Of a stretch of DNA of 64,000 bases, positions 1,590 through 28,764 are shown piece by piece. Each line of letters begins with the position of its first letter. Within the stretch, counting starts at the first letter, position 1. A program made the position numbers and the translations under genes. The notes under the pieces are model-generated. The model worked only from the letters and a program-made list of their open reading frames with translations, was not told where the DNA came from and made no database searches. Source of the DNA: an uncultured Eubacteriales bacterium. Lineage in GTDB: Bacteria; Bacillota; Clostridia; TANB77; UBA1234. The stretch spans positions 28,563-92,562 of the forward strand of contig CAYMVI010000004.1 in the NCBI GenBank assembly GCA_964394075.1, written 5' to 3'.

Positions 1590-3824
1590 TTACATATCCT
1601 TTGGTTTTTCGTCTGTCATTCCGAAGTAATACATGATTCCATCAACGATACGATCACATGAATTACCATCACCATAAGGATTTAAAGCTCTACTCATTTT
1701 CTTGTATTCTTCTTTGTCATCTAATAATTTTTGAGCTTCTTCTATGATTATCTTTTTGTCTGTTCCTACAATTTTTACAGTTCCAGCAGCAACAGCTTCT
1801 GGTCTTTCAGTTTCTGTTCTTAACACTAATACTGGTTTTCCTAATGATGGAGCTTCTTCTTGAATTCCACCAGAATCAGTTAATACCATGTAAGATCTAT
1901 TAATTAGGTTGTGTGTTGTTATAACATCAAGTGGTTCAATCAAATGAACGTTTTTAACTTCACCTAATGTCTTTGTTGCAACATCTTGTACAGCTGGATT
2001 TAAGTGCACTGGATATACAACTACAACATCTTTATTTTTCTTTGCAATTTCTTTAACAGCATTACAAATATTTTGAAGTGGTTCTCCAAGATTTTCTCTT
2101 CTATGTGCTGTCATGAAAATAATTTTCTTACTAAAGTCTAATTTTGATAGTACCGGATGAGTGAATTTATAATCATCTCTTACTGTTGTTTTTAAAGCAT
2201 CAATAACTGTATTACCAGTTGTATAAATTAAGCTTTCATCCACTAATTCTCTAAGTAGATTATTTTTGTTATTTATTGTTGGAGCAAAGTATAAGTCAGC
2301 AATCTTAGTTACTAATTGTCTGTTCATCTCCTCTGGATATGGAGAATATTTATCATAAGTTCTAAGACCAGCTTCTACGTGACCAACTTTTACTCTGTTA
2401 TAGAACGCTGCAAGCGCTGCTGAGAAAGTAGTTGTTGTATCACCATGAACTAATACGATGTCTGGTTGTTCTTTTTGAATAACTTCACAAAGTCTTTCTA
2501 ACACTTCTGCTGTTATATGCGTAAGTGTTTGTTTATCTTTCATTACATTCAAATCGTATTCAGGTTTGATTTTGAAAGCTTCTAAAACTTGATCAAGCAT
2601 TTGACGATGTTGTGCTGTAACACAAACGATTGTCTCAATGTTTTCTCTTTCTTTTAATTTAAGTGCAAGTGGGCACATTTTAATAGCTTCCGGTCTTGTA
2701 CCAAACACAAGCATAACTTTTATTTTTTCTTTCTTTTCTGCATTTCTCTTATCCATAACTACAGCTTTTCTCTTCTTGCCATTGTCTAAGTAAACAAGAA
2801 TGTCGTTTGCATTTCTAATTCCAATTACTGATAAGATAGCAAGTATAGCCATTAAAATAAGAACTTTCCAGAAGTTACTTTCTAGAATAATTACAGCCAA
2901 TATTCCAAGCAAAGCAGTTACGCCATAAAGAACTAATACAGCTTGCTTTTGTGAAAGACCAGCATCTATTAATCTGTGATGAATGTGACCTCTATCAGCT
3001 TCCATTATTGATTTGTGATGTAGCACTCTTCTGCAAATAGCAAACAATGTATCAAAAATAGGTAATCCTAGAATTACAACTGGAACTACGATTGCCATAA
3101 GTGTGTATGTTTTAGCCATACCAATCATTGAAACTGTAGCTAAAGTAAATCCTAAGAAATTCGAACCTGTATCACCCATAAATGTTTTGGCCGGGTTAAA
3201 GTTGTAAGGTAAGAATCCTACTAAACCACCAAGTAAAGCAACAGTTATTAAAAGTGGTAATTCACCAGAACCATTAAGCGCAAATACTATTGTAAGTGCT
3301 AATGTTGCAATGGCTGAAACACCAGTTGCTAAACCATCTAATCCATCAATTAGGTTTAATGCATTTGTAACACCGATAATCCAGAAGAATGTGATTATCA
3401 CCGATAATATATCGTTTAATCCATACATTGTTATAAAAGGAATATTTATATAACAAATTCTTAATCCGCTAATTATTACTAGAATAGCTGCAATAACTTG
3501 TCCTAATAATTTTTGCCAAGGTTTAATGTGATAAATATCATCTAAAAATCCTACTGCAGCAACTATTGCTGAACCAATAAAGAATCCAACTAAATTAACA
3601 GATGTATCAACTTTAACTGTTAATAAAGAAAATATAATTGCTACGAAGAAACCTAATATAAATGAAAGTCCGCCAATTCTAGGCATTGGCTTAGCATGAA
3701 TCTTTCTTTCATCTTTTGGAACGTCTACTGCTCCCACTTTAAACGCAAACTTTATCATTAGCGGTGCAACGATCATTGATGTAATAGCTGCTAATATAAA
3801 AGCTATCATTGTGTTTATTATCAT
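1590..3824 (-). CDS. Fusion protein: N-terminal polyprenyl-phosphate GlcNAc-1-phosphate transferase (TagO/WecA, MraY-like GT4) + C-terminal UDP-N-acetylglucosamine 2-epimerase (MnaA/WecB)
   Basis: First ~340 aa polytopic membrane with MraY/WecA-like motifs (DDxxD-like, NALNLIDGLDGLA); C-terminal ~380 aa KVMLVFGTRPEAIKM...HVEAGLRT...epimerase motifs. Confidence 0.8.
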   Translation of the reverse strand: MIINTMIAFILAAITSMIVAPLMIKFAFKVGAVDVPKDERKIHAKPMPRIGGLSFILGFFVAIIFSLLTVKVDTSVNLVGFFIGSAIVAAVGFLDDIYHIKPWQKLLGQVIAAILVIISGLRICYINIPFITMYGLNDILSVIITFFWIIGVTNALNLIDGLDGLATGVSAIATLALTIVFALNGSGELPLLITVALLGGLVGFLPYNFNPAKTFMGDTGSNFLGFTLATVSMIGMAKTYTLMAIVVPVVILGLPIFDTLFAICRRVLHHKSIMEADRGHIHHRLIDAGLSQKQAVLVLYGVTALLGILAVIILESNFWKVLILMAILAILSVIGIRNANDILVYLDNGKKRKAVVMDKRNAEKKEKIKVMLVFGTRPEAIKMCPLALKLKERENIETIVCVTAQHRQMLDQVLEAFKIKPEYDLNVMKDKQTLTHITAEVLERLCEVIQKEQPDIVLVHGDTTTTFSAALAAFYNRVKVGHVEAGLRTYDKYSPYPEEMNRQLVTKIADLYFAPTINNKNNLLRELVDESLIYTTGNTVIDALKTTVRDDYKFTHPVLSKLDFSKKIIFMTAHRRENLGEPLQNICNAVKEIAKKNKDVVVVYPVHLNPAVQDVATKTLGEVKNVHLIEPLDVITTHNLINRSYMVLTDSGGIQEEAPSLGKPVLVLRTETERPEAVAAGTVKIVGTDKKIIIEEAQKLLDDKEEYKKMSRALNPYGDGNSCDRIVDGIMYYFGMTDEKPKDM

Positions 3825-3832
3825 AATATTTT

Positions 3833-4750
3833 TTACTTCCTTTCAAGTTCATATTTTTGAACTATATCTAATCTCTCTTGGTAAATACCATCTAAGAATT
3901 TAGCACTTTTCCATAGTTCAATTAATTTAATTGCTTGTTCTAGATTTATATAATCAGCACCTAAAGTTATTACATTGGCATTATTGTGCTCTTTAGCAGA
4001 CTTTGCTGTTTCTTCGTTATAGCAAAGTGCACATCTTACACCATTAACTTTATTAGCTGCTATTGCCATACCTATTCCGCTTCTGCAGATTAAAATTCCT
4101 GCATCCACTTCACCTTTGGCTACTGCTTCACCAACAGCAACTGCTGTTTGTGGCTCATCGATACCTCTTACATCATTGTAAGCACCGAAATCTTTTAATT
4201 CATCTTTGTAATATGCTCTAAGTTGTTCTTTTAAAGCAAATCCACCATGATCTGAACCTATCGCTATCATTAGTTTTCTCCCTTCAGTTTTCTCTAGTTT
4301 ATCCATAAGTAGTTCTACCAATTCTTTAATATTCTCAGCACATGCTTCATATTCAGCTTCATCGCCGCCGAATGGATCGACCACATCACCTTCTTTTCCA
4401 AGATAATGAGTTAATGTGTCTACATGAGCTTTTGGTATATCTATTTGATTTAATACATTCTTCATAGAAGCTTGCATACACAAAATGATATCTGCATCTT
4501 TTATGCTGTCATAATTAATGTTCTTTGGTTTGTAATCTTCTATATCAATTCCATATTTTTCCTTCATTACTTTTATCGTATTTGAAGAAGGTTTTCTTGA
4601 GTCCAAAGTAACATATAAACCTACGGAATCAGCACTTAGCTCTCTTTCCAGTCCTTTTTCGCAAGCAAGCTTGTTGAATAGCGCTTGAGCCATTGGACTT
4701 CTGCACGTATTTCCTGTGCAAACAAACAAAATTTTCTTCAAAAAAATCAC
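3833..4750 (-). CDS. Fusion: low-molecular-weight protein Tyr/Arg phosphatase (YwlE-like) + ribose-5-phosphate isomerase B (RpiB/LacAB)
   Basis: N-term CTGNTCRSPMA P-loop of LMW-PTP; C-term MIAIGSDHGGF...RSGIGMAIAANK RpiB motifs; 305 aa. Confidence 0.8.
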   Translation of the reverse strand: MIFLKKILFVCTGNTCRSPMAQALFNKLACEKGLERELSADSVGLYVTLDSRKPSSNTIKVMKEKYGIDIEDYKPKNINYDSIKDADIILCMQASMKNVLNQIDIPKAHVDTLTHYLGKEGDVVDPFGGDEAEYEACAENIKELVELLMDKLEKTEGRKLMIAIGSDHGGFALKEQLRAYYKDELKDFGAYNDVRGIDEPQTAVAVGEAVAKGEVDAGILICRSGIGMAIAANKVNGVRCALCYNEETAKSAKEHNNANVITLGADYINLEQAIKLIELWKSAKFLDGIYQERLDIVQKYELERK

Positions 4751-16839: not shown

Positions 16840-17192
16840 TTATCCCGGCAAAAGAAGTTCCTTCTTTACCAGTTCGCGATCTTCATTGTAACCGCGGTAC
16901 AGAATTACTGTAATAGTATCGCCTTCCGAAACATTCTCATATAACGCTTGATTATTAAAGGTTTGTGCCATGTCTTCGTATACAATTGTGACATTATACT
17001 GGGCTGGATGAAACTGAGGTGACATCATAGTTACCTTGCCGACGCGCATAGGAATATATGTGGTATAACTGCTCTTATATTCTTTTTCCGTCACGGTGGC
17101 AGTCACTTCAAAAGTTTCCTCTTCTACGATTTTTTGACATCCTGCCAAAAGGATACACAAGATGATGGTTGATACTAAAATTATCCGTTTCA
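16840..17192 (-). CDS. Small lipoprotein, unknown function (GC-enriched gene)
   Basis: MKRIILVSTIILCILLAGC lipobox signal; strong RBS GGAGGA; about 40% GC by eye vs ~30% flanks. Confidence 0.65.
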
Positions 17193-17316
17193 TTTTTTCC
17201 TCCTCAAATTTAGTTGGTGGATAGACGTACAGAGATATTGCCAAGAATATTTTACACTTGTTTACATAAAAAATCAAGTGGTATTAGCACTACAACCCTA
17301 CATTTTATCTATACAA

Positions 17317-21218: not shown

Positions 21219-21250
21219 AAGCACTTCTCATTTCGAGAAGTGCTTATTTT
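21219..21250. terminator. Bidirectional terminator between convergent GH57 gene and giant gene
   Basis: AAGCACTTCTC-ATTTC-GAGAAGTGCTT flanked by A/T runs. Confidence 0.7.
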
Positions 21251-24200
21251 TTATTTCATTCCTGTTAATTCTTTGAATACTTTCAATTGCATTTTTCTTT
21301 CTTTGCCATCTGGTATTCTATTTATTTCTGTAATTAGTCCGTTTATTTGTTGCTGATTCAAAAGAAGTAATGTTGCTTCTAACTCATTATATTGCGCAAG
21401 TGATAACGATGCATGTTTTGAAAGTAAGCGTAAAGCTTGTTTTGGTAATAAGTTTGTAACCATAATTACAACTTCACTATCCATTTCAGCTCTGCTTGCA
21501 GGACTATCAAAATAATTATCTTTTGCAACACTTCTTGCCCTATAATAATTATCTAACATTACGCTTTCATAAATTAAGATAATTCTTAATTTTCTTAAGT
21601 CCGTATTCGGAAGCGAATGTCCGCCTGATGCATCTTTTACAATTTCAAGTCCTTGCTTATTTTTACCACGCATTATAATATAGTTTGCCTCTTCTTGTGT
21701 CGTTACTTTATTATCAACAAAGTAATCCGCAAATAATACTGCTTTTCTTTGATCCAAGAAATAGAAATCTTTATCATCCATTTCTGAATTTGTAATAGCT
21801 TCAAAGATTTTCAAAATCTTATTACCGGTTCTGTCTTCAGCAATAATCTCTTTCAAACCTTCTTCAACTAATTGTTTTTCTTTTCTGATAACAGTGCTTA
21901 ACTTCTCAGCCAAACCATACTCTTCCATAGAACCTTCCCATCTTAAAGCTTCTCTCAAGTAAGTAACGATTTCTGTATTGTAATCGTTTAGCTGATTAAT
22001 AGTTACTATTTCATCATTCTTAAGCACAACACTTCTACCTAATGCTTGCAAATATGGATCTGTAAATACAGCTTCTGGTTCTTTTTGAGCTTCTTCCAGA
22101 GCTTTTCTTTCTTTTTCCTCTTCTTCAAGTCTTAACTTCTCTGCTTCTTCAGCCTCAACTTGAGCAACCAAATCAGCATCAATAAACTTCTGTGCATCAG
22201 GATTGAAGTATGCTTTATTCTCTGGTTTCTTTTCGCCAAAATTATCAGCAGTAAAGTATTGTATTACAACATTTTCTATCGGATTTTCATCTACAATGAT
22301 ATCAGAAGGATTGTTGTGTGAATAACGCCATGTATCATTGTTATTATCATAAATCACTTTAATAACTGGCTTTGGTGCAAACCTTGTACCAATTTGCGCT
22401 TTTACAATTACATCATCTTTTAATGTTCTACCATCTGCCGTTTGAAGTTTAATTGTAACGATAGCTTTCTTTTCTTGATATATAACGTTGATAATATTAT
22501 TGATACTTCCAACAGTAAGTTTGATTGGTTCTGTTCTGTTGTATAACCATCTTCTGTTTTGTTCGTCAACAAATTCTCTTTCAACCTCAGGCACAAATTC
22601 ACTACCTACTTCTAAGTTAAGTAGATCCGTCTTCTTGATAGTATTTCCTTCAGTATCTTTATAACGTACAGAGATTTCAGCTTTGGCAACCTCATACGTC
22701 ATAATGATTTCATTTTCTCTATTATCTTCTTTTACTGTAATCGGATCTATCTTATCATTTAAAAGTTGCCACTGAATTCCGTTTCTGTCAGTAACAAATC
22801 TAATAGGATCCTGTCTATAAACAGTTCCAACAGGCATATCTATTTCCATATCATCTTTTAATTTATTACCATCGATATCTTGGAATGATACTTTTACTTT
22901 TGTAACAAGTGATTCATAAGTTAAGTCAAAGAAGTTTATAACCTGATTGCTGCCTAGTGGCACTTCTTTTACTTTTATTGTTTGTGGCTCACATTTTACA
23001 AATTTATATTGTTTAGATTCTTCATCCGAAATTCTTTGATCTATATCAGGTTTAAATGTACTACCCAATTGTGCTTTAACAATCTTGTCTTTCATAATTG
23101 AGTTACCATTCTTTGTAATAAATCTCAAGTTAACATTTACCTTCAACGGAATATACAAGAATTCGATTACATTATTTTTATCTTCTTCATTAACAAGAAT
23201 TTCTTCTTTATTAGCAGCTTTAAACTCCCAAACGCGTCCATCTGAACCTTCAATAACGTTATCAGGTGATATTTTGTGAGCACTACCAATTTGAGCAAGA
23301 ACTTTCTTTGGTTCTTTCAACTTATTGTTGTCTTGATCTTTATATTGATATATAACAAAAGCTTTTTCTTGTTCATAAGCAAGTACAACAACGTTTTCTT
23401 TCACGTCTTTACTTACTCTTATTGTTGCTTTACTATTTACGTTATAAGTCCATTTCTTGTTAGCTGCGCCAGAGATTTTTTCAATAATTTCCGGTGTGTA
23501 ATTAGAACCAATTTGCGCTTCATATTGATCGTACTGTTTTATTTCTGCGCCAAGAGGATCTACATATCTTACAACAACTTTATTCATAGACGGTTTGTAA
23601 TAAAGTTTAGTGAAATTCTGATCTAACTTCACAGTAACTGGAAGCGGATCAATCTTTTTGCCACCGCCGAAAAGTTTGTTTTCAATTCTACAATCTGCAA
23701 TCCATTCTCTGCCAAATTCATCTTCAACATACTCTTCAATCTTTGGTAAAAATTCTGTACCAACTTGTACTCTTTCTACCTTAGGTTTTATAATGTCGTT
23801 TTCAGCTGCATCTTTATAGTAGATTGTTACATCCACTATATATTTATCATATAACACACTGATTGTATTTTCGTTTGGCTTTCTTGAGACTTTTAATGGT
23901 TTTAAAGATTCTTGATCTATTAACCATCCCATCTTGTTTTCATCAACAATAACAAGCTGTGCTGTAGGATTAAAAGTGCTACCAATTTGAGCTTTAATTG
24001 TTTTCCATGAAGCAATTTGTTGCAACTCTTTATTAAAGAATTCCATTCTAACTTCTGCCATATCTTTTTTGTATGAAATAATAATGTTATTTTCCTCTTC
24101 ATTTTCAGAAACAACAAGTTTGCTTTCATTAATTTCAGTAAACAACCACGCTTTGCCATCTGGATCAATAAAGTTTTGTTTAACTCTAACTTCCACATTT

Positions 24201-27200
24201 GTTCCAACCTGGTATTTGTTAATAACTTCTGGAGCAATTAAGTCGCCTTCTTCATCAACGTAGCTAATTGTAACTTCTGATAACAATTTTTCATATCTAC
24301 ATGTAATTACATTATCTCCGTCCTTAACTACAAACTCTGGCATACTTGCAGTTTTATATTCCCATTTTGCCCCATCTTTATTTGCAACAACTTTTTGTAT
24401 ATCAAGTTTGTAACGTTTACCAACTTGAATCTTTTCTTCCTTCGCAGTTGTTATTTCTTTATTTTCTTCATCAACATATTTTGTAATAATTTTTCCAAGT
24501 AACGGTTCATAAATATTAACCACTAAATTGCCATCTTCTTTTACAATTTGTGAATCCATATTAGATTTTACAAATTTCCAACCGATACCTTTTGAATCAT
24601 TAAACTTATTTGCTGCCTCAATACGAATTTCTTTTCCTACTTGAATATCTTTTGTAACATCAGGTTTTAATTGCTGTCCATCTTTGTTTTGATATTTCAT
24701 CAAAACTTGTGCTCTGCGCTCTTCATAATTTAATACAATGATGTTTTCTTGTTCATTTTCTTTGGCAATTATATTGATATTTTCATCGCCAATATAATTC
24801 CACTCCCATTTATTTTTATCAATTAATCTTTGTCTAATATTAGGTACATATATTCCACCCAAAGCAACTGTTGTAATAATATCTTCAACAACACTTTTTT
24901 GTGTTTTAACATCGATGTGTTTAACTAATATTTTAGCTTTTACTTCACCATAGATAAATTTAAATTTATTGCCTTGTTCTCTTACTGTCAAAATCTTAGG
25001 TTCAGTATTTTCTAGCATCCAACGTTGCCCATTCATGTCTGTGATTTTATACAGTGTGTTTGTGTCATACTCAGCACCTATTTGCCACGGAAGTTCTTTT
25101 TCTTCTAGAAGTACATTTCCAAAAGCATCATAAAAACTAATTCTAACATTTGTAGTTTCTTTATCATAATAAATTGAAACAACATTTTCTTCTTCATGTT
25201 TTCCAACAACAAGCGTTGGAATTTTAGATTCATCAATAACCCATTTCTTACCGTCTTTTCCAGTAATCTTTTTAATTGGATCATTTTTATATTGAGTACC
25301 TGCTTGCACAACTTGTGTCTTAGACGGAATAAGTTCTCTTGATTCCGCATCAAAATATTTAACTGTTACTTTTGCCATTAAAGGTTCATACTTCAAAGTT
25401 ACTACATTTTCTTGAACATTTTCCGAAATGACAATCGATTTTCCAGCATCAATTAATGTCCAAATTTTACCGAAATTATCTGAGATTTCATTGCGACTAG
25501 CATAGTTGAAAATACCACCAATTTGAGCTTCTTCAAAGACCGCATCTCTAATCGCTCTACCATCTTCCCTTATAAATTTCAATGACGCTTTAGCAAGTCT
25601 TGGCTTGTATACTGCTTGTAAAATATTTTGAGATTCATCGCTATTAACAACAATAGAATCTGTAACAGCATTTCTATATTCCCACTCTTTGCACTCATAG
25701 TCATATAACATTTTTTCAAAATTTACTGAATGTGTTTTTCCTATTTGTACAAAAGAAACCTCTTCATCTACAAGATTATTTCCATTTTCATCAATAACTC
25801 TTGTGATAACTTTTTGTTTTGCTTCATCGTATAGCAAATTAATTTCATTATTTACTCCAGTTTGCACCACAATATAGTCTACAGAAGCTTCTGAATATAG
25901 CCAACCTAATCCATCCATATCTACGATATAAGGAACAGATTGTGCCCTGCACATTTTACCAACCGCACTTTGTATAATTTGTGGCGGTGCTATTTCTTTA
26001 CCATTTTTGTTCAAATATTTTACAACAACATCCGCTCTATCTATGTCATACACCAATATAATTTTATTTCTTTGTTCATCATCTGAAATAACCAATCTCG
26101 ATGGTCTAGCACTTTTTAGTTTCCACTCATCACCTTTTTCATCAGTAAAATGAGCTTTTGATTCCATATCAAAAACAGAACCAACTTGCCAAATCTCAGA
26201 TTTTTCTTCAGTTAAATTTTTACCATCTCTATTAATTATAGAAATGTGCACTCTAGCATATCTTTCGATGTATTTTATCTCTATAATATTTTCTGAAGGA
26301 TCTGTTTGCACTACAAAATTAGCAGGGTTTTCATTTTCAATCAACCACTCTTTTCCTTCACTATCATTAATTATTGGAATAACATCAGGTATATATATAG
26401 TATTTGGGAATAAATTTCCGATTCTATTTTCTTTTAATACTACACCTTTTGAATTAACGTATCTAACAGTTAATGTAGTCGAACCCGGTAACGCATTTGC
26501 ACTCGATGCAATATAACTTGTTGAACCTCCAAAATCACCTTGCGAATTGCCAAAGAAAGAATCTTCTGATTCTTGGTTCGCATTTCCACCAACATTAGTA
26601 CCATTAAACATCACTACTTGTCTTCTATCTGGATTACCTAAAGGTATATAAATATCTACTTCGATATTTGGTACAGGCAAAGAATCTGCGCCACTATAAT
26701 TTACATCTTCGTAAATATATCCTAATAAGTCTGGAATACAACTATCATCAATAATCGTCTCTCTCTTAATAATAACAGCCATTGCATTAACATTAAAATC
26801 AGCAATAGATTGTTTTCTTATAACATTACCTTTTCTATCTGTATATTCTAACTTCGTTCCAATCTTTGTATTGTCTTCCAAGACATTCTCTACCAACTTA
26901 TATTTGTATCTTCTTCCCACATTATCTTCGATTGTTACATATAATCTTTCTTCGAATTCGGCAGGATCAGTTATGATTCTATATCTGTATCTTAGTGGTT
27001 CAAACGTATCTGTTCTAACCTGCAAATTGTTATAAATCAAATCTGTAGACGGACACACAAGTTCAGGATTAAGTTTTAATAATATCTCACGAAGTGCATT
27101 AACATCTAACTCTTGGCTAGATTCAAGTCTAGATCTTCTCAAAATTTCTTTTGCTACATTATCTACTTTTGAATCATCTTCAAAAAGTTCTGAATACATT

Positions 27201-28081
27201 GATTTTTCGGAAGAACGAGTAGCAACAAATATTGCAATTTCTCCTTGTGAACCTCTAGTCTTTTCTGACCAATAATAAGAAATATGATTAAGTGGAAAAT
27301 CTACTCTTGGTGGCAACTCATTTATTTTTACATAAGGATCATTTGTAACAATTCCAGCCGATACATTTTTAGATTTTATTTTTATTTGAACATCACGTTC
27401 AAAAATTTCTAATCTATTCGTTTTTGTGTTTATATATCTTATTGAATATGCATTTAAATTTTCAGCATATTTTGCAGGAGTATCATAATTTCTAATCAAT
27501 GGATTCAAATCATTTACAGCCATATCGTCAATTACGAAATCCGACAATAACATAGTAAGTATATCTCTTACTTTTCTATCATTTAAAACAATCTTTTTAC
27601 TATTCAAGAAAGCTTCATAATAATCTTTTGTTATCGCATCTCTTTCAGGTTTATAAATTTGTTCATAAGTCATGTTGTTATACATGTTCATTGTTTTTTG
27701 TGACGGAACATACTTAACGATTTTTATTTTTCCTTCAGCAGTTACACCAACAATTGCATTTCTTTTAGACAATGTATAATCAGCAGTAGGTATTCTTGTT
27801 TTTACTGCAGACTCTGTTGAAGAAGGCGTAATATCTCCCTCTAAAACAGAACAACCTAACATTTCTTCTCCTATGTTTAAGAAAGTTTGTATTATATCAA
27901 CATTAGGTTCTGAATACTCTTTTATGACAAAAATATTTTCTTCGATTTTACTTTCATCAAGCTGTTCTATTCTATTATCAACAACAGTCAAATCTAATTT
28001 ATCTAACGCTGCATTTATTGACATGCTGTTATATCCTAAAGCAATAAGTTTATCTCTAAGCAGAGTTGCACTTTTTTTCAT
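21251..28081 (-). CDS. Giant (~2276 aa) cytoplasmic tandem-repeat protein: ~500-aa N-terminal region, >=17 consecutive ~85-90-aa beta-rich modules, coiled-coil/acidic linker, ~300-aa C-terminal domain
   Basis: Uninterrupted ORF; likely ATG 28081 (MKKSATLL) preceded by AAGGGGTGAA; no signal peptide/TM; repeat consensus [VI]x[VI]xYxDxxGxx[IL]...Q[VI]G...DxxGxxW...[VI]x.E..EN[VI][VI]..Y. Confidence 0.8.
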   Translation of the reverse strand: MKKSATLLRDKLIALGYNSMSINAALDKLDLTVVDNRIEQLDESKIEENIFVIKEYSEPNVDIIQTFLNIGEEMLGCSVLEGDITPSSTESAVKTRIPTADYTLSKRNAIVGVTAEGKIKIVKYVPSQKTMNMYNNMTYEQIYKPERDAITKDYYEAFLNSKKIVLNDRKVRDILTMLLSDFVIDDMAVNDLNPLIRNYDTPAKYAENLNAYSIRYINTKTNRLEIFERDVQIKIKSKNVSAGIVTNDPYVKINELPPRVDFPLNHISYYWSEKTRGSQGEIAIFVATRSSEKSMYSELFEDDSKVDNVAKEILRRSRLESSQELDVNALREILLKLNPELVCPSTDLIYNNLQVRTDTFEPLRYRYRIITDPAEFEERLYVTIEDNVGRRYKYKLVENVLEDNTKIGTKLEYTDRKGNVIRKQSIADFNVNAMAVIIKRETIIDDSCIPDLLGYIYEDVNYSGADSLPVPNIEVDIYIPLGNPDRRQVVMFNGTNVGGNANQESEDSFFGNSQGDFGGSTSYIASSANALPGSTTLTVRYVNSKGVVLKENRIGNLFPNTIYIPDVIPIINDSEGKEWLIENENPANFVVQTDPSENIIEIKYIERYARVHISIINRDGKNLTEEKSEIWQVGSVFDMESKAHFTDEKGDEWKLKSARPSRLVISDDEQRNKIILVYDIDRADVVVKYLNKNGKEIAPPQIIQSAVGKMCRAQSVPYIVDMDGLGWLYSEASVDYIVVQTGVNNEINLLYDEAKQKVITRVIDENGNNLVDEEVSFVQIGKTHSVNFEKMLYDYECKEWEYRNAVTDSIVVNSDESQNILQAVYKPRLAKASLKFIREDGRAIRDAVFEEAQIGGIFNYASRNEISDNFGKIWTLIDAGKSIVISENVQENVVTLKYEPLMAKVTVKYFDAESRELIPSKTQVVQAGTQYKNDPIKKITGKDGKKWVIDESKIPTLVVGKHEEENVVSIYYDKETTNVRISFYDAFGNVLLEEKELPWQIGAEYDTNTLYKITDMNGQRWMLENTEPKILTVREQGNKFKFIYGEVKAKILVKHIDVKTQKSVVEDIITTVALGGIYVPNIRQRLIDKNKWEWNYIGDENINIIAKENEQENIIVLNYEERRAQVLMKYQNKDGQQLKPDVTKDIQVGKEIRIEAANKFNDSKGIGWKFVKSNMDSQIVKEDGNLVVNIYEPLLGKIITKYVDEENKEITTAKEEKIQVGKRYKLDIQKVVANKDGAKWEYKTASMPEFVVKDGDNVITCRYEKLLSEVTISYVDEEGDLIAPEVINKYQVGTNVEVRVKQNFIDPDGKAWLFTEINESKLVVSENEEENNIIISYKKDMAEVRMEFFNKELQQIASWKTIKAQIGSTFNPTAQLVIVDENKMGWLIDQESLKPLKVSRKPNENTISVLYDKYIVDVTIYYKDAAENDIIKPKVERVQVGTEFLPKIEEYVEDEFGREWIADCRIENKLFGGGKKIDPLPVTVKLDQNFTKLYYKPSMNKVVVRYVDPLGAEIKQYDQYEAQIGSNYTPEIIEKISGAANKKWTYNVNSKATIRVSKDVKENVVVLAYEQEKAFVIYQYKDQDNNKLKEPKKVLAQIGSAHKISPDNVIEGSDGRVWEFKAANKEEILVNEEDKNNVIEFLYIPLKVNVNLRFITKNGNSIMKDKIVKAQLGSTFKPDIDQRISDEESKQYKFVKCEPQTIKVKEVPLGSNQVINFFDLTYESLVTKVKVSFQDIDGNKLKDDMEIDMPVGTVYRQDPIRFVTDRNGIQWQLLNDKIDPITVKEDNRENEIIMTYEVAKAEISVRYKDTEGNTIKKTDLLNLEVGSEFVPEVEREFVDEQNRRWLYNRTEPIKLTVGSINNIINVIYQEKKAIVTIKLQTADGRTLKDDVIVKAQIGTRFAPKPVIKVIYDNNNDTWRYSHNNPSDIIVDENPIENVVIQYFTADNFGEKKPENKAYFNPDAQKFIDADLVAQVEAEEAEKLRLEEEEKERKALEEAQKEPEAVFTDPYLQALGRSVVLKNDEIVTINQLNDYNTEIVTYLREALRWEGSMEEYGLAEKLSTVIRKEKQLVEEGLKEIIAEDRTGNKILKIFEAITNSEMDDKDFYFLDQRKAVLFADYFVDNKVTTQEEANYIIMRGKNKQGLEIVKDASGGHSLPNTDLRKLRIILIYESVMLDNYYRARSVAKDNYFDSPASRAEMDSEVVIMVTNLLPKQALRLLSKHASLSLAQYNELEATLLLLNQQQINGLITEINRIPDGKERKMQLKVFKELTGMK

Positions 28082-28224
28082 TTGTTCACCCCTTGATTTA
28101 AAATCAATTACGCACATAATAATACAAATAATATTATATCTTAATGAGTATTTTTTTCAATACTTTTACTTATACTAATTAAAAATTTCAATCAAACTTT
28201 TTTGAGTTTTTCGAAAGGATTTTT

Positions 28225-28764
28225 ATGCAACCAAAATTTTTAATTTTAAAATTTTATTCTAAGGATTTGTTTAATCTATTTTCAAAAAAAATTTCAGAAT
28301 ATCCACACATAATTTTTTCTTCAAAAAAATTTAATGGAACTTATAACGTGATTGTAAAAACGAATAAATATTTCGAATCTGTTTTTCAAGATGATTACGA
28401 CAACAAATTTTATACATCCTATATTTACCTGTACACTAGCATTTCCATAGTTTTATCAGAATTTATAATCGATAATTTTGAACTAAAATTAGCACATCAA
28501 ATTCTTTCCACAAAATATAAATATTTGAGTCCATATTCAAAAAATAAATTAAAAAACATTTTACACTTTGTTTTAGATTCAAATTACCCAAGTGCATCTT
28601 CTAAAAATTTATTTTTGTATCGAAAAGATTTAATACTTAGAAAATTACTTTTGAATTTTAGAAGAGCAAATTATTTGTATGTTGATTACTTTATTTATTT
28701 CAAATTAACCGACTATTATTTACACTTAGAAAATATAATTTCAAAAACATATTTGCGTTATTAA
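28225..28764 (+). CDS. Hypothetical Tyr/Lys-rich protein (179 aa)
   Basis: ORF with AGGA RBS; no recognisable motifs; AT-rich, so coding status moderately uncertain. Confidence 0.4.
   Translation: MQPKFLILKFYSKDLFNLFSKKISEYPHIIFSSKKFNGTYNVIVKTNKYFESVFQDDYDNKFYTSYIYLYTSISIVLSEFIIDNFELKLAHQILSTKYKYLSPYSKNKLKNILHFVLDSNYPSASSKNLFLYRKDLILRKLLLNFRRANYLYVDYFIYFKLTDYYLHLENIISKTYLRY

Follow-up and report, generated by a model that had tools for sequence, protein, structure and literature searches.

Arrays of MucBP modules are treated as parts of Sec-exported, wall-anchored adhesins, but one gene of the window (the whole 64-kb stretch of DNA analyzed here) places the same module in a protein of 2276 amino acids (aa) that has neither a Sec signal nor an anchor and is encoded near genes of α-glucan metabolism. 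This raises the question of where such a protein is located and what purpose its long array serves there. A preliminary description of the locus had called the protein cytoplasmic, which was a mere inference from the missing signal peptide, and had suggested a role as a scaffold in polyglucan metabolism or in spore biology.

Architecture and conservation of a 19-module protein

The gene is a single uninterrupted open reading frame, as previously described, and begins with an ATG at 28081 that is preceded, 6 nt upstream, by the ribosome-binding site AGGGGTG (Table 1). Inspection of hydropathy showed that the N terminus of the window protein has no hydrophobic core and is not Sec-like, and the highest 19-residue Kyte-Doolittle mean anywhere in the protein is 1.31, so there is no transmembrane (TM) segment; by the same measure, the orthologs reach a maximum of at most 1.82, in no case located N-terminally. 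The absence of a signal peptide and of TM segments noted in the preliminary description thus holds. LPXTG is absent from the last 80 residues in all 24 sequences, no ortholog has a TM segment, and no cell wall-anchoring domain was detected in the 2276-aa protein. MucBP was the only Pfam family to reach significance in the whole protein, with no Pfam match to a WXG100 or LXG domain; the NCBIfam search and a PDB sequence search with the whole protein gave no match. Cysteine is depleted, at 0.18 to 0.86% in the family versus 1.25% for a set of 15 other window proteins.

Table 1. Features of the gene, its flanking signals, and the regions of the encoded protein (positions in the window)
Feature	Residues (aa)	Positions	Strand	Remarks
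Sigma-A-type promoter		28133..28160	minus	TTGAAA-N16-TATAAT; 11/12 consensus positions
Whole gene	1-2276	21251..28081	minus	ORF list and translation; stop codon at 21251-21253 included
N-terminal region	1-495	26596..28081	minus	Small four-helix head, mixed α/β domains, degenerate module-like subdomain
Gly/Ser/Asn-rich linker	496-532	26485..26595	minus	pLDDT <50; conservation index 0.19, poorly conserved
19 tandem MucBP modules	533-1943	22253..26484	minus	71-83 aa each; period ~74 aa
Acidic linker	1944-2010	22052..22252	minus	Partly disordered, long charged helix; conservation index 0.23
All-α C-terminal domain	about 2011-2276	21254..22051	minus
Bidirectional intrinsic terminator, common to the gene and convergent GH57		21219..21245	.	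11-12 bp stem; T-runs on both strands

The whole protein belongs to the MucBP family (PF06458), which it matches in 9 stretches with an E value of 4.6e-37 and 127 bits against a curated cut-off of 23; when modules were tested alone, 9 of the 19 matched at E<0.01, and one such single-module score was 21.6 bits, slightly below the 23-bit cut-off. The preliminary description had recognized the β-grasp MucBP type correctly, and its skeleton of the module agrees with our module alignment, but what it took for a mere resemblance is true Pfam MucBP; at the domain level, the modules therefore belong to a known, canonical family. The estimate of about 20 modules, and at least 17, can be replaced by an exact count of 19, and the claimed period of about 88 aa was too long: the measured period is 74 aa (range, 72 to 75), apart from two modules that extend to 84 and 79 aa. 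Structure prediction, which had been proposed as a check, returned a β-grasp fold for the module, from models built on alignments shallower than the 24-genome set. Since no tandem repeat was found in the gene at the DNA level and the modules share only 14 to 36% pairwise identity, the array is old, as had been claimed; because the modules are also positionally orthologous, an assembly artifact or a recent repeat expansion is ruled out.

The regions on either side of the array are less familiar. The model of the N-terminal region predicts four helices of 8 to 12 residues and no long helical hairpin, and a highly conserved, degenerate module-like subdomain lies at about aa 396 to 480. The acidic linker and the C-terminal domain of about 300 aa given in the preliminary description both appear in the AF2 model, the linker as a predicted disordered stretch followed by a 35-residue helix; the C-terminal domain is about 270 to 330 aa in size. 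Neither the N-domain nor the C-domain matched a Pfam family or a convincing solved fold, neither matched NCBIfam or PHROGs, and no homologs of the N-domain were found in phage and plasmid collections.

Orthologs of this long form were found in 26 species genomes, all of them metagenome-assembled genomes of uncultured gut Clostridia, and on 10 metagenome contigs, giving 36 long-form loci. The full-length relatives came from an exhaustive search; word-indexed searches yielded no more than metagenome fragments, 6 with the N-domain, 2 with the C-domain, and 6 with an alignment of the N-domain. In all intact copies (23 genome copies; 24 full-length sequences), the module count is exactly 19 and the spacing pattern is the same, even between species with copies that share only about 35% identity. 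The gene is under purifying selection, with a dN/dS of 0.05 against the closest ortholog that is uniform along its length, which rules out a pseudogene. Together, the fixed number and spacing of the modules and the uniformly low dN/dS suggest that length itself is constrained. The family nevertheless diverges much faster than its neighbors, in keeping with an exposed protein: between distant genomes the long-form protein is 32 to 54% identical, versus 65 to 89% for GH57, GlgP, and GT4, and the short forms described below are 28 to 36% identical while their EssC proteins are 60% identical.

Short homologs beside genes resembling those of type VII secretion

Shorter, distant homologs have the same N-domain in full (profile E values of 1e-86 to 1e-131), 3 to 7 modules, and no C-domain. 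They are encoded directly 3′ of genes for an EssC-like ATPase of about 1515 aa (FHA plus FtsK_SpoIIIE) and a conserved 83-aa protein, and/or adjoin a gene for a 204-aa WXG100-family protein, and this context, resembling a type VII secretion system (T7SS), occurs in four separate lineages (L028-30, L031, L032, and L033). Only about 35 nt separate the short form from the 83-aa gene, an arrangement suggestive of cotranscription. The modules of the short forms are collinear with those of the long form, and modules 17 to 19 are always retained, consistent with a central spacer that varies and is flanked by functional ends. The 64-kb window contains no EssC, WXG100, or 83-aa gene, and none was found when the 36 long-form loci were surveyed to a distance of 10 kb, so clustering with genes for a WXG100 protein and an EssC/TsxC ATPase is a property of the short forms and not, over this distance, of the long-form loci. 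The C-domain showed no similarity to the 204-aa WXG100-like protein (hhalign probability, 0.6%).

The presence of shorter relatives inside T7SS-like gene clusters makes a secretion-linked surface fiber likelier than a glycogen-granule scaffold. Our leading explanation, which we put forward tentatively and with less than even confidence, is that the protein is a Sec-independent, T7SS-linked stalk protein of the surface or envelope. It would be produced in growing cells, from the conserved sigma-A-type promoter, and would leave the cytoplasm, or be assembled at the envelope, by a pathway that does not depend on Sec and is related to type VII secretion. There it might form a rod-like stalk composed of a head of about 500 aa, a stiff array of 19 MucBP β-grasp modules, and a linker with the all-α C-terminal domain; by our estimate, which is not a computed value, the extended array could be about 60 to 80 nm long. 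The array would then act as a spacer of fixed length, with the head and modules 17 to 19 as functional ends; we infer that the long form is exported and located at the surface and that its head and tail domains play such roles. Several points count against export linked to a T7SS: most known substrates of these systems are helical, and to our knowledge the export of 19 folded β-grasp domains is without precedent; further, no T7SS gene was found within 10 kb of the long form, and the searches for a WXG100 or LXG targeting domain, for similarity of the C-domain to the WXG100-like partner, and for a wall-anchoring domain were negative. A more far-reaching proposal, which we regard as doubtful, is that the family forms the stalk or fiber of an undescribed T7SS variant of low-GC gut Clostridia, the first type VII-type machine to export or assemble a long MucBP rod without a Sec signal, and that in one clade the gene moved out of the secretion locus, acquired the all-α C-domain, and turned into a ruler-like surface structure of fixed length with 19 modules.

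The short form could instead be a cytoplasmic accessory part of a T7SS and not a substrate. Extended to the whole family, this alternative, which seems to us unlikely, holds that the protein is a cytoplasmic accessory factor or scaffold of a T7SS-type machine, with β-grasp arrays analogous to the ubiquitin-like EsaB/YukD, and that the long form is a detached derivative that may still be cytoplasmic. It would account for the location of the short forms straight after the EssC-like gene and the 83-aa gene, whose product resembles EsaB/TsxB in size and position, and it agrees with the negative search for a T7SS targeting domain in the family; moreover, cytoplasmic accessory proteins that lack a signal peptide and TM segments belong to several of the T7SS variants already described (PMC11217815). 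However, the modules match MucBP of extracellular proteins and not YukD or ubiquitin, and the 83-aa protein has no match to YukD among Pfam or PDB profiles, so its assignment to YukD/EsaB was not adopted and the analogy is one of position. The depletion of cysteine and the fast divergence suggest exposure, and it is difficult to see why a cytoplasmic regulator would be a rod of 19 modules.

The glucan and sporulation gene neighborhood

The gene had been described as lying antiparallel between a GH57 gene and an α-glucan phosphorylase gene, and a check on the conservation of this position in related genomes had been proposed. The position is conserved, since the GH57 branching-enzyme cluster (GH57-DUF4912-GT4) and the phosphorylase gene (GlgP) flank the gene in every long-form locus covering both sides, but the direct upstream neighbor is a YtxC-like gene (28225-28764), which is followed by the phosphorylase gene. 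This arrangement, together with the absence of a Sec signal and a TM segment, could point to a cytoplasmic scaffold for polyglucan (granulose or glycogen) whose 19 modules bind α-glucan and organize granules or the neighboring enzymes. MucBP modules do occur in α-glucan enzymes of R. bromii, the pullulanases Amy10, Amy11, and Amy12 (PDB 9qf8, 9qfa, and 7lst), and Amy10 was the single, weak match of the module profile in the PDB (E=4e-4); Amy11 is given without a signal peptide (PMC5814915). In those enzymes, however, one to three modules are attached to GH13/CBM48 catalytic domains, whereas the 2276-aa protein has no catalytic domain, and no carbohydrate-binding module (CBM20, 21, 25, 26, 48, and similar) was detected by Pfam search of the protein.

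Several further observations make a polyglucan scaffold quite improbable. The gene is monocistronic: it has a conserved promoter to itself, and its bidirectional terminator also serves the convergent GH57 gene (only 0.2 terminator-like sites are expected by chance). Pyruvate kinase, SpoIVA, and SpoIIE belong to the conserved syntenic block as well, so that proximity to the gene is no special trait of the glucan genes; in two loci (L012 and L019), insertions of unrelated genes separate the long-form gene from GH57, and the linkage is kept only within one clade, the short forms being located away from glucan genes, in T7SS-like clusters. Neither specific, lineage-independent linkage nor cotranscription with glucan genes was therefore found. 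The gene also evolves far faster than the glucan enzymes, and the literature searched for MucBP makes no mention of glucan binding by MucBP domains. We read the adjacency as inherited synteny, not functional coupling, and the scaffold role suggested earlier is not upheld. The conserved housekeeping block and the lack of phage matches also rule out a prophage or mobile origin.

Weakest of all, and very unlikely in our judgment, is a spore-surface protein (coat, exosporium, or appendage) produced in the mother cell: the organism is a spore former with spoIVA, spoIIE, and the ytxC-like gene within 10 kb, and spore-surface proteins of mother-cell origin need no signal peptide, which would explain why none is present here, but the nearby sporulation genes are separate transcription units in a housekeeping block, the short forms are operonic with the EssC-like gene, and the promoter is of the wrong type. 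A sigma-A-type motif (−35 with at most one mismatch, −10 perfect) lies 5′ of 27 of 27 orthologs, whose proteins are about 35 to 50% identical, while consensus scans of the 27 upstream regions with regular expressions gave sigma-K-like motifs in none, sigma-E-like motifs in two, and a sigma-F/G-like motif in one; a conserved sporulation-sigma promoter was thus not found, contrary to the suggested role in spore biology. Both the glucan-scaffold and the spore-surface readings are weaker than the T7SS-linked stalk.

Relation to known systems

The closest known proteins by repeat unit are the MucBP surface adhesins of Bacillota (PF06458; the Lactobacillus Mub-type, Listeria, and Pediococcus MucBP proteins, PDB 2kyw, and YwfG), which have the same module, predicted to be β-grasp and arranged in tandem with very short linkers. 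The 2276-aa protein differs from them in lacking a Sec signal peptide, LPXTG, or other wall anchor and in its unique N- and C-terminal domains. The number of modules in MucBP adhesins varies between strains, whereas in this family it is fixed across species. The canonical MucBP motif is GY, in whose apparent place the modules carry G-x-x-W.

Among T7SS proteins, the likeness is one of gene position. EsaA/YueB of T7SSb and the Ig-repeat proteins TsdI, TseI, and TsjI are large and repeat-rich, are encoded beside EssC/TsxC and TsxB genes, and are envelope-spanning components according to a published proposal (Garrett et al. 2024, PMC11217815). The short forms of the present family take the same position in their clusters, but TM segments are found in EsaA, and TsdI combines a signal peptide with a TM anchor, whereas the present family has neither; the repeats of TsdI, TseI, and TsjI are Ig-like and not MucBP, and no T7SS gene is visible within 10 kb of the long form. 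The family also shares features with T7SSb substrates (WXG100 and LXG proteins), namely the absence of a Sec signal, adjacent genes for small WXG100-like partners (in the short forms), and fast divergence. It differs from them in having no helical WXG100 or LXG targeting domain at either end and a body that is β-rich and very long. TslA is a T7SSb substrate of reverse arrangement.

Our literature search found no link between MucBP proteins and type VII secretion. If the protein is cytoplasmic, it would represent an intracellular use of an adhesin module, of which we know of no earlier description, and in either case no relatives of known structure could be detected for the families that its N- and C-terminal domains represent. 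If instead the type VII link is true, the range of cargo would widen from small helical proteins and toxins to long, β-rich fibers, and a surface structure of a new type would be added to those of gut Clostridia. The carriers belong to the common, uncultured gut bacteria of ruminants, rabbits, and humans.

Architecture of the giant protein

The giant gene is a single uninterrupted open reading frame of 2276 codons. Its longest frame extends to an ATG at 28117; since AGGGGTG stands at a suitable distance before the ATG at 28081, where the orthologues also start, the start was placed there. The product is acidic (pI ~5.1; 0.35% cysteine), and its highest 19-residue Kyte-Doolittle mean is only 1.31, so that it has no membrane segment; for residues 1 to 50, a high-confidence model shows four short helices rather than a signal peptide. 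The preliminary description, which had reported neither membrane segment nor signal peptide, agrees with this. A search for LPXTG in the protein found none.

Modules were located with a profile made from the protein's own sequence. Their spacings (74, 74, 73, 74, 73, 74, 72, 75, 72, 72, 74, 74, 84, 74, 74, 79, 74, and 72) give a period of 74 aa, which replaces the ~88 aa first proposed; the module consensus proposed with it was otherwise correct. Pairwise identity among the modules is 14 to 36% (mean, 23%), and Tandem Repeats Finder detected no DNA-level repeat in the gene; the array is therefore ancient, as had been claimed, and an assembly artifact is ruled out as its source. The modules are true MucBP domains, a kinship which the former term "MucBP-like" recognized too cautiously; two orthologues are labeled "MucBP domain-containing protein [Clostridia bacterium]" at NCBI (MBQ9267667.1 and MBR4110299.1). 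Module 19 is followed by a linker, acidic and in part disordered, and then by a charged helix of 35 residues; an all-alpha domain of ~270 residues (model pLDDT, ~85 to 95) completes the protein, and only generic helical matches were obtained for it.

Features of the window, the giant protein, and homologous loci (L0xx)
Feature	Position	Strand	Remark
Giant gene	21251-28081	-
Promoter TTGAAA-N16-TATAAT	28160-28133		51 nt upstream of giant gene start
Bidirectional terminator	21219-21245		Occupies 36-nt gap to convergent GH57 gene
19 head-to-tail modules	aa 533-1943		Own-sequence profile
Partial degenerate module copy	~aa 396-480		Own-sequence profile
Linker, N-terminal region to array	aa 496-532		Disordered, poorly conserved
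YtxC-like gene	28225-28764	+	179 aa; divergent from giant gene
145-aa ORF	16840-17277	-	Between GT4 gene and spoIVA
Glycos_transf_4 (WecA/TagO-like) + UDP-GlcNAc 2-epimerase	1590-3824	-	Fused gene
Low-molecular-weight phosphotyrosine phosphatase + RpiB	3833-4750	-	Fused gene
376-aa ORF	53524-54654	+	TraG-D_C (coupling-protein C-terminal) match
472-aa ORF	58529-59947	-	No Pfam family; adjoins helicase gene
DEAD/HA2 helicase gene	60300-62552	+	750 aa
Insertion	L012:16853-20077		Broken AAA ATPase, metallophosphoesterase, HTH-Fic protein
Insertion	L019:16766-18271		Secreted 501-aa protein with SLH-like repeats
Broken giant ORF	L020:9965-10966		Ends after 333 aa
Broken giant ORF	L021:9986-10261		Ends after 91 aa
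T7SS-like clusters	L028:20-13078; L032:719-12556; L031:1633-5993; L033:3-3397		Low-GC gut metagenome contigs
1341-aa protein	L028:20-4045		No Pfam match

Distribution and constancy of the array

When 1.84 billion cluster representatives were scanned exhaustively by HMMER with the N-terminal domain, only 27 proteins matched, 6 of them full length (2227 to 2324 aa). A species-level scan (one genome for each of 185,579 species) yielded 26 loci, all in MAGs of uncultured Clostridia or "Eubacteriales" that came from the guts of sheep, roe deer, rabbits, and humans. The nearest relative is a MAG from sheep rectum (N-domain identity, 91%); a metagenome scan added 10 long-form loci. The ORF is intact (2227 to 2326 aa) in 23 of the 26 genome loci, leaves the contig end in 1, and is interrupted in 2. 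In L020 and L021 it breaks early, with the C-terminal part detectable downstream; the cause could be an error in MAG sequencing or recent pseudogene formation.

Exactly 19 modules were found in 24/24 full-length sequences, in a nearly identical spacing pattern that includes the long modules 13 and 16. Identity to the same-index module in distant orthologues is 36 to 40%, versus 24% to other modules, and in three distant orthologues the best match stood at the same index for 11, 13, and 14 of the 19 modules. Relative to the closest relative, dN/dS is 0.05 at a dS of 0.85, uniformly across head, array, and tail. These comparisons mark it as a functional gene whose length is apparently under constraint.

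Short relatives in type VII secretion-like loci

Four proteins found by exhaustive search share the N-terminal domain (profile E, 1e-86 to 1e-131) with only three to seven modules and end directly after the last one, without the C-terminal domain. Their modules are collinear with long-form modules 1, 2, 3, 4 or 5, 17, 18, and 19 (P0018, 1025 aa); 17, 18, and 19 (P0019, 783 aa); 3, 4, 5, 6, 17, 18, and 19 (P0020, 999 aa); and an unassigned one, 3, 15, 17, 18, and 19 (P0022, 851 aa). All four keep the head and modules 17 to 19, and the alignments suggest that the array center is a spacer, variable in length between lineages and fixed at 19 modules in the long-form clade.

These short forms are encoded in divergent clusters resembling type VII secretion system (T7SS) loci. 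In L028-30 and L032, an EssC-like ATPase gene (~1515 aa; FHA and FtsK_SpoIIIE) is followed by an 83-aa gene and, after ~35 nt, by the short form; the same conserved 83-aa gene stands at the start of L033. A 204-aa WXG100-family gene directly follows the short form in L031 and L033 and lies upstream of the EssC-like gene in L028. Between two of the lineages, identity is 60% for EssC, 65% for the 83-aa protein, and 28 to 36% for the short forms; the GC content of these loci (29 to 31%) is near the window's 33%. Most remaining genes of the clusters lack a Pfam match, and there is no obvious correspondence to the T7SSb-j variants (PMC11217815). Downstream of its WXG100-like gene, L031 also has a gene of 132 aa whose YwqH-like match is weak (E = 3e-4) and, at 21.3 bits, falls short of the 33.7-bit cutoff. 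The C-terminal ~180 aa of the 1341-aa L028 protein are 29% identical to the adjoining 204-aa WXG100-like protein, which makes the larger protein a possible T7SS substrate whose targeting domain would be reversed, at the C terminus.

The best-supported reading, which we put forward tentatively, is that the giant protein is a Sec-independent stalk or fiber with ancestry in T7SS-like loci. The head domain and modules 17 to 19 would be functional ends with a rigid MucBP spacer between them, and the helical tail would have been added in the long-form clade, perhaps for anchoring or oligomerization. Cysteine depletion (0.18 to 0.86% versus 1.25% in neighboring proteins) and rapid divergence fit exposure outside the cell. 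Garrett et al. (2024) described eight additional T7SS variants; for some of these, large repeat proteins are proposed as envelope-spanning parts, and none has a MucBP component (PMC11217815); our full-text literature search retrieved no paper connecting MucBP proteins with type VII secretion. The stalk reading has serious weak points: no T7SS gene lies within 10 kb of any of the 36 long-form loci, no WXG100 or LXG targeting domain was found in the protein's family, and the short form might act in the cytoplasm as an accessory instead of being cargo. That the giant protein itself is a cytoplasmic T7SS accessory seems unlikely.

The repeat unit belongs to a known family, and the gene already bears that family's label in public databases. 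What is new is the architecture without signal or anchor, the two end domains without relatives of known fold, the unchanging module number across species, and the T7SS-locus context of the short relatives; the argument is one of comparative inference, drawn from uncultured organisms.

Glucan genes, transcription, and the remaining window

The gene order is SpoIIE, HD, tRNA-Arg, pyruvate kinase, alpha-glucan phosphorylase, YtxC-like, giant gene, GH57 branching enzyme, DUF4912, GT4 glycogen-synthase-like, 145-aa ORF, and SpoIVA, and every long-form locus of sufficient length retains it, which answers positively the preliminary description's call for a check of conserved position. This adjacency speaks for the glucan scaffold proposed there, as does the presence of MucBP modules in pullulanases of R. 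bromii, one of which, Amy11, is listed without a signal peptide (PMC5814915). Its functional reading is weakened because the conserved block reaches well past the glucan genes, neighboring proteins are better conserved (65 to 99% identical, versus 32 to 54% for the giant protein), and unrelated genes separate the giant gene from GH57 in L012 and L019. No CBM was detected in the giant protein, and with operon linkage and lineage-independent association failing as well, a scaffold role is quite improbable. The giant gene-GH57 gap is an insertion spot. The YtxC-like gene matches YtxC models in its first half only and is missing or unrecognizable in the L018-L024 subclade; the 145-aa ORF, conserved in close relatives, has only weak phage-family matches (phrog_6716, E = 6e-7; Cor superinfection exclusion, E = 3e-4).

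The promoter motif (perfect -10, at most one mismatch in -35) recurs upstream of 27/27 orthologues, although their proteins have diverged to ~35% identity. With this conserved promoter and the terminator, the giant gene is monocistronic, and its promoter is of the housekeeping type; consensus scans of the 27 upstream regions found sigma-K-like motifs in 0, sigma-E-like motifs in 2, and sigma-F/G-like motifs in 1. A spore-surface role, contradicted by this promoter, is very unlikely. Taken together, the stalk, accessory, scaffold, and spore-surface readings leave an appreciable share of the probability unallotted.

Elsewhere, the window consists of ordinary housekeeping DNA in which neither secretion nor flagellar genes occur. 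The 376-aa ORF, which precedes an unannotated ORF of 297 aa and a dnaB/dnaI-like pair, may be a conjugative-element remnant. GC content reaches 44.8% in block 60001-62000, against a background of ~31%, and the helicase gene there may have been acquired through horizontal transfer.
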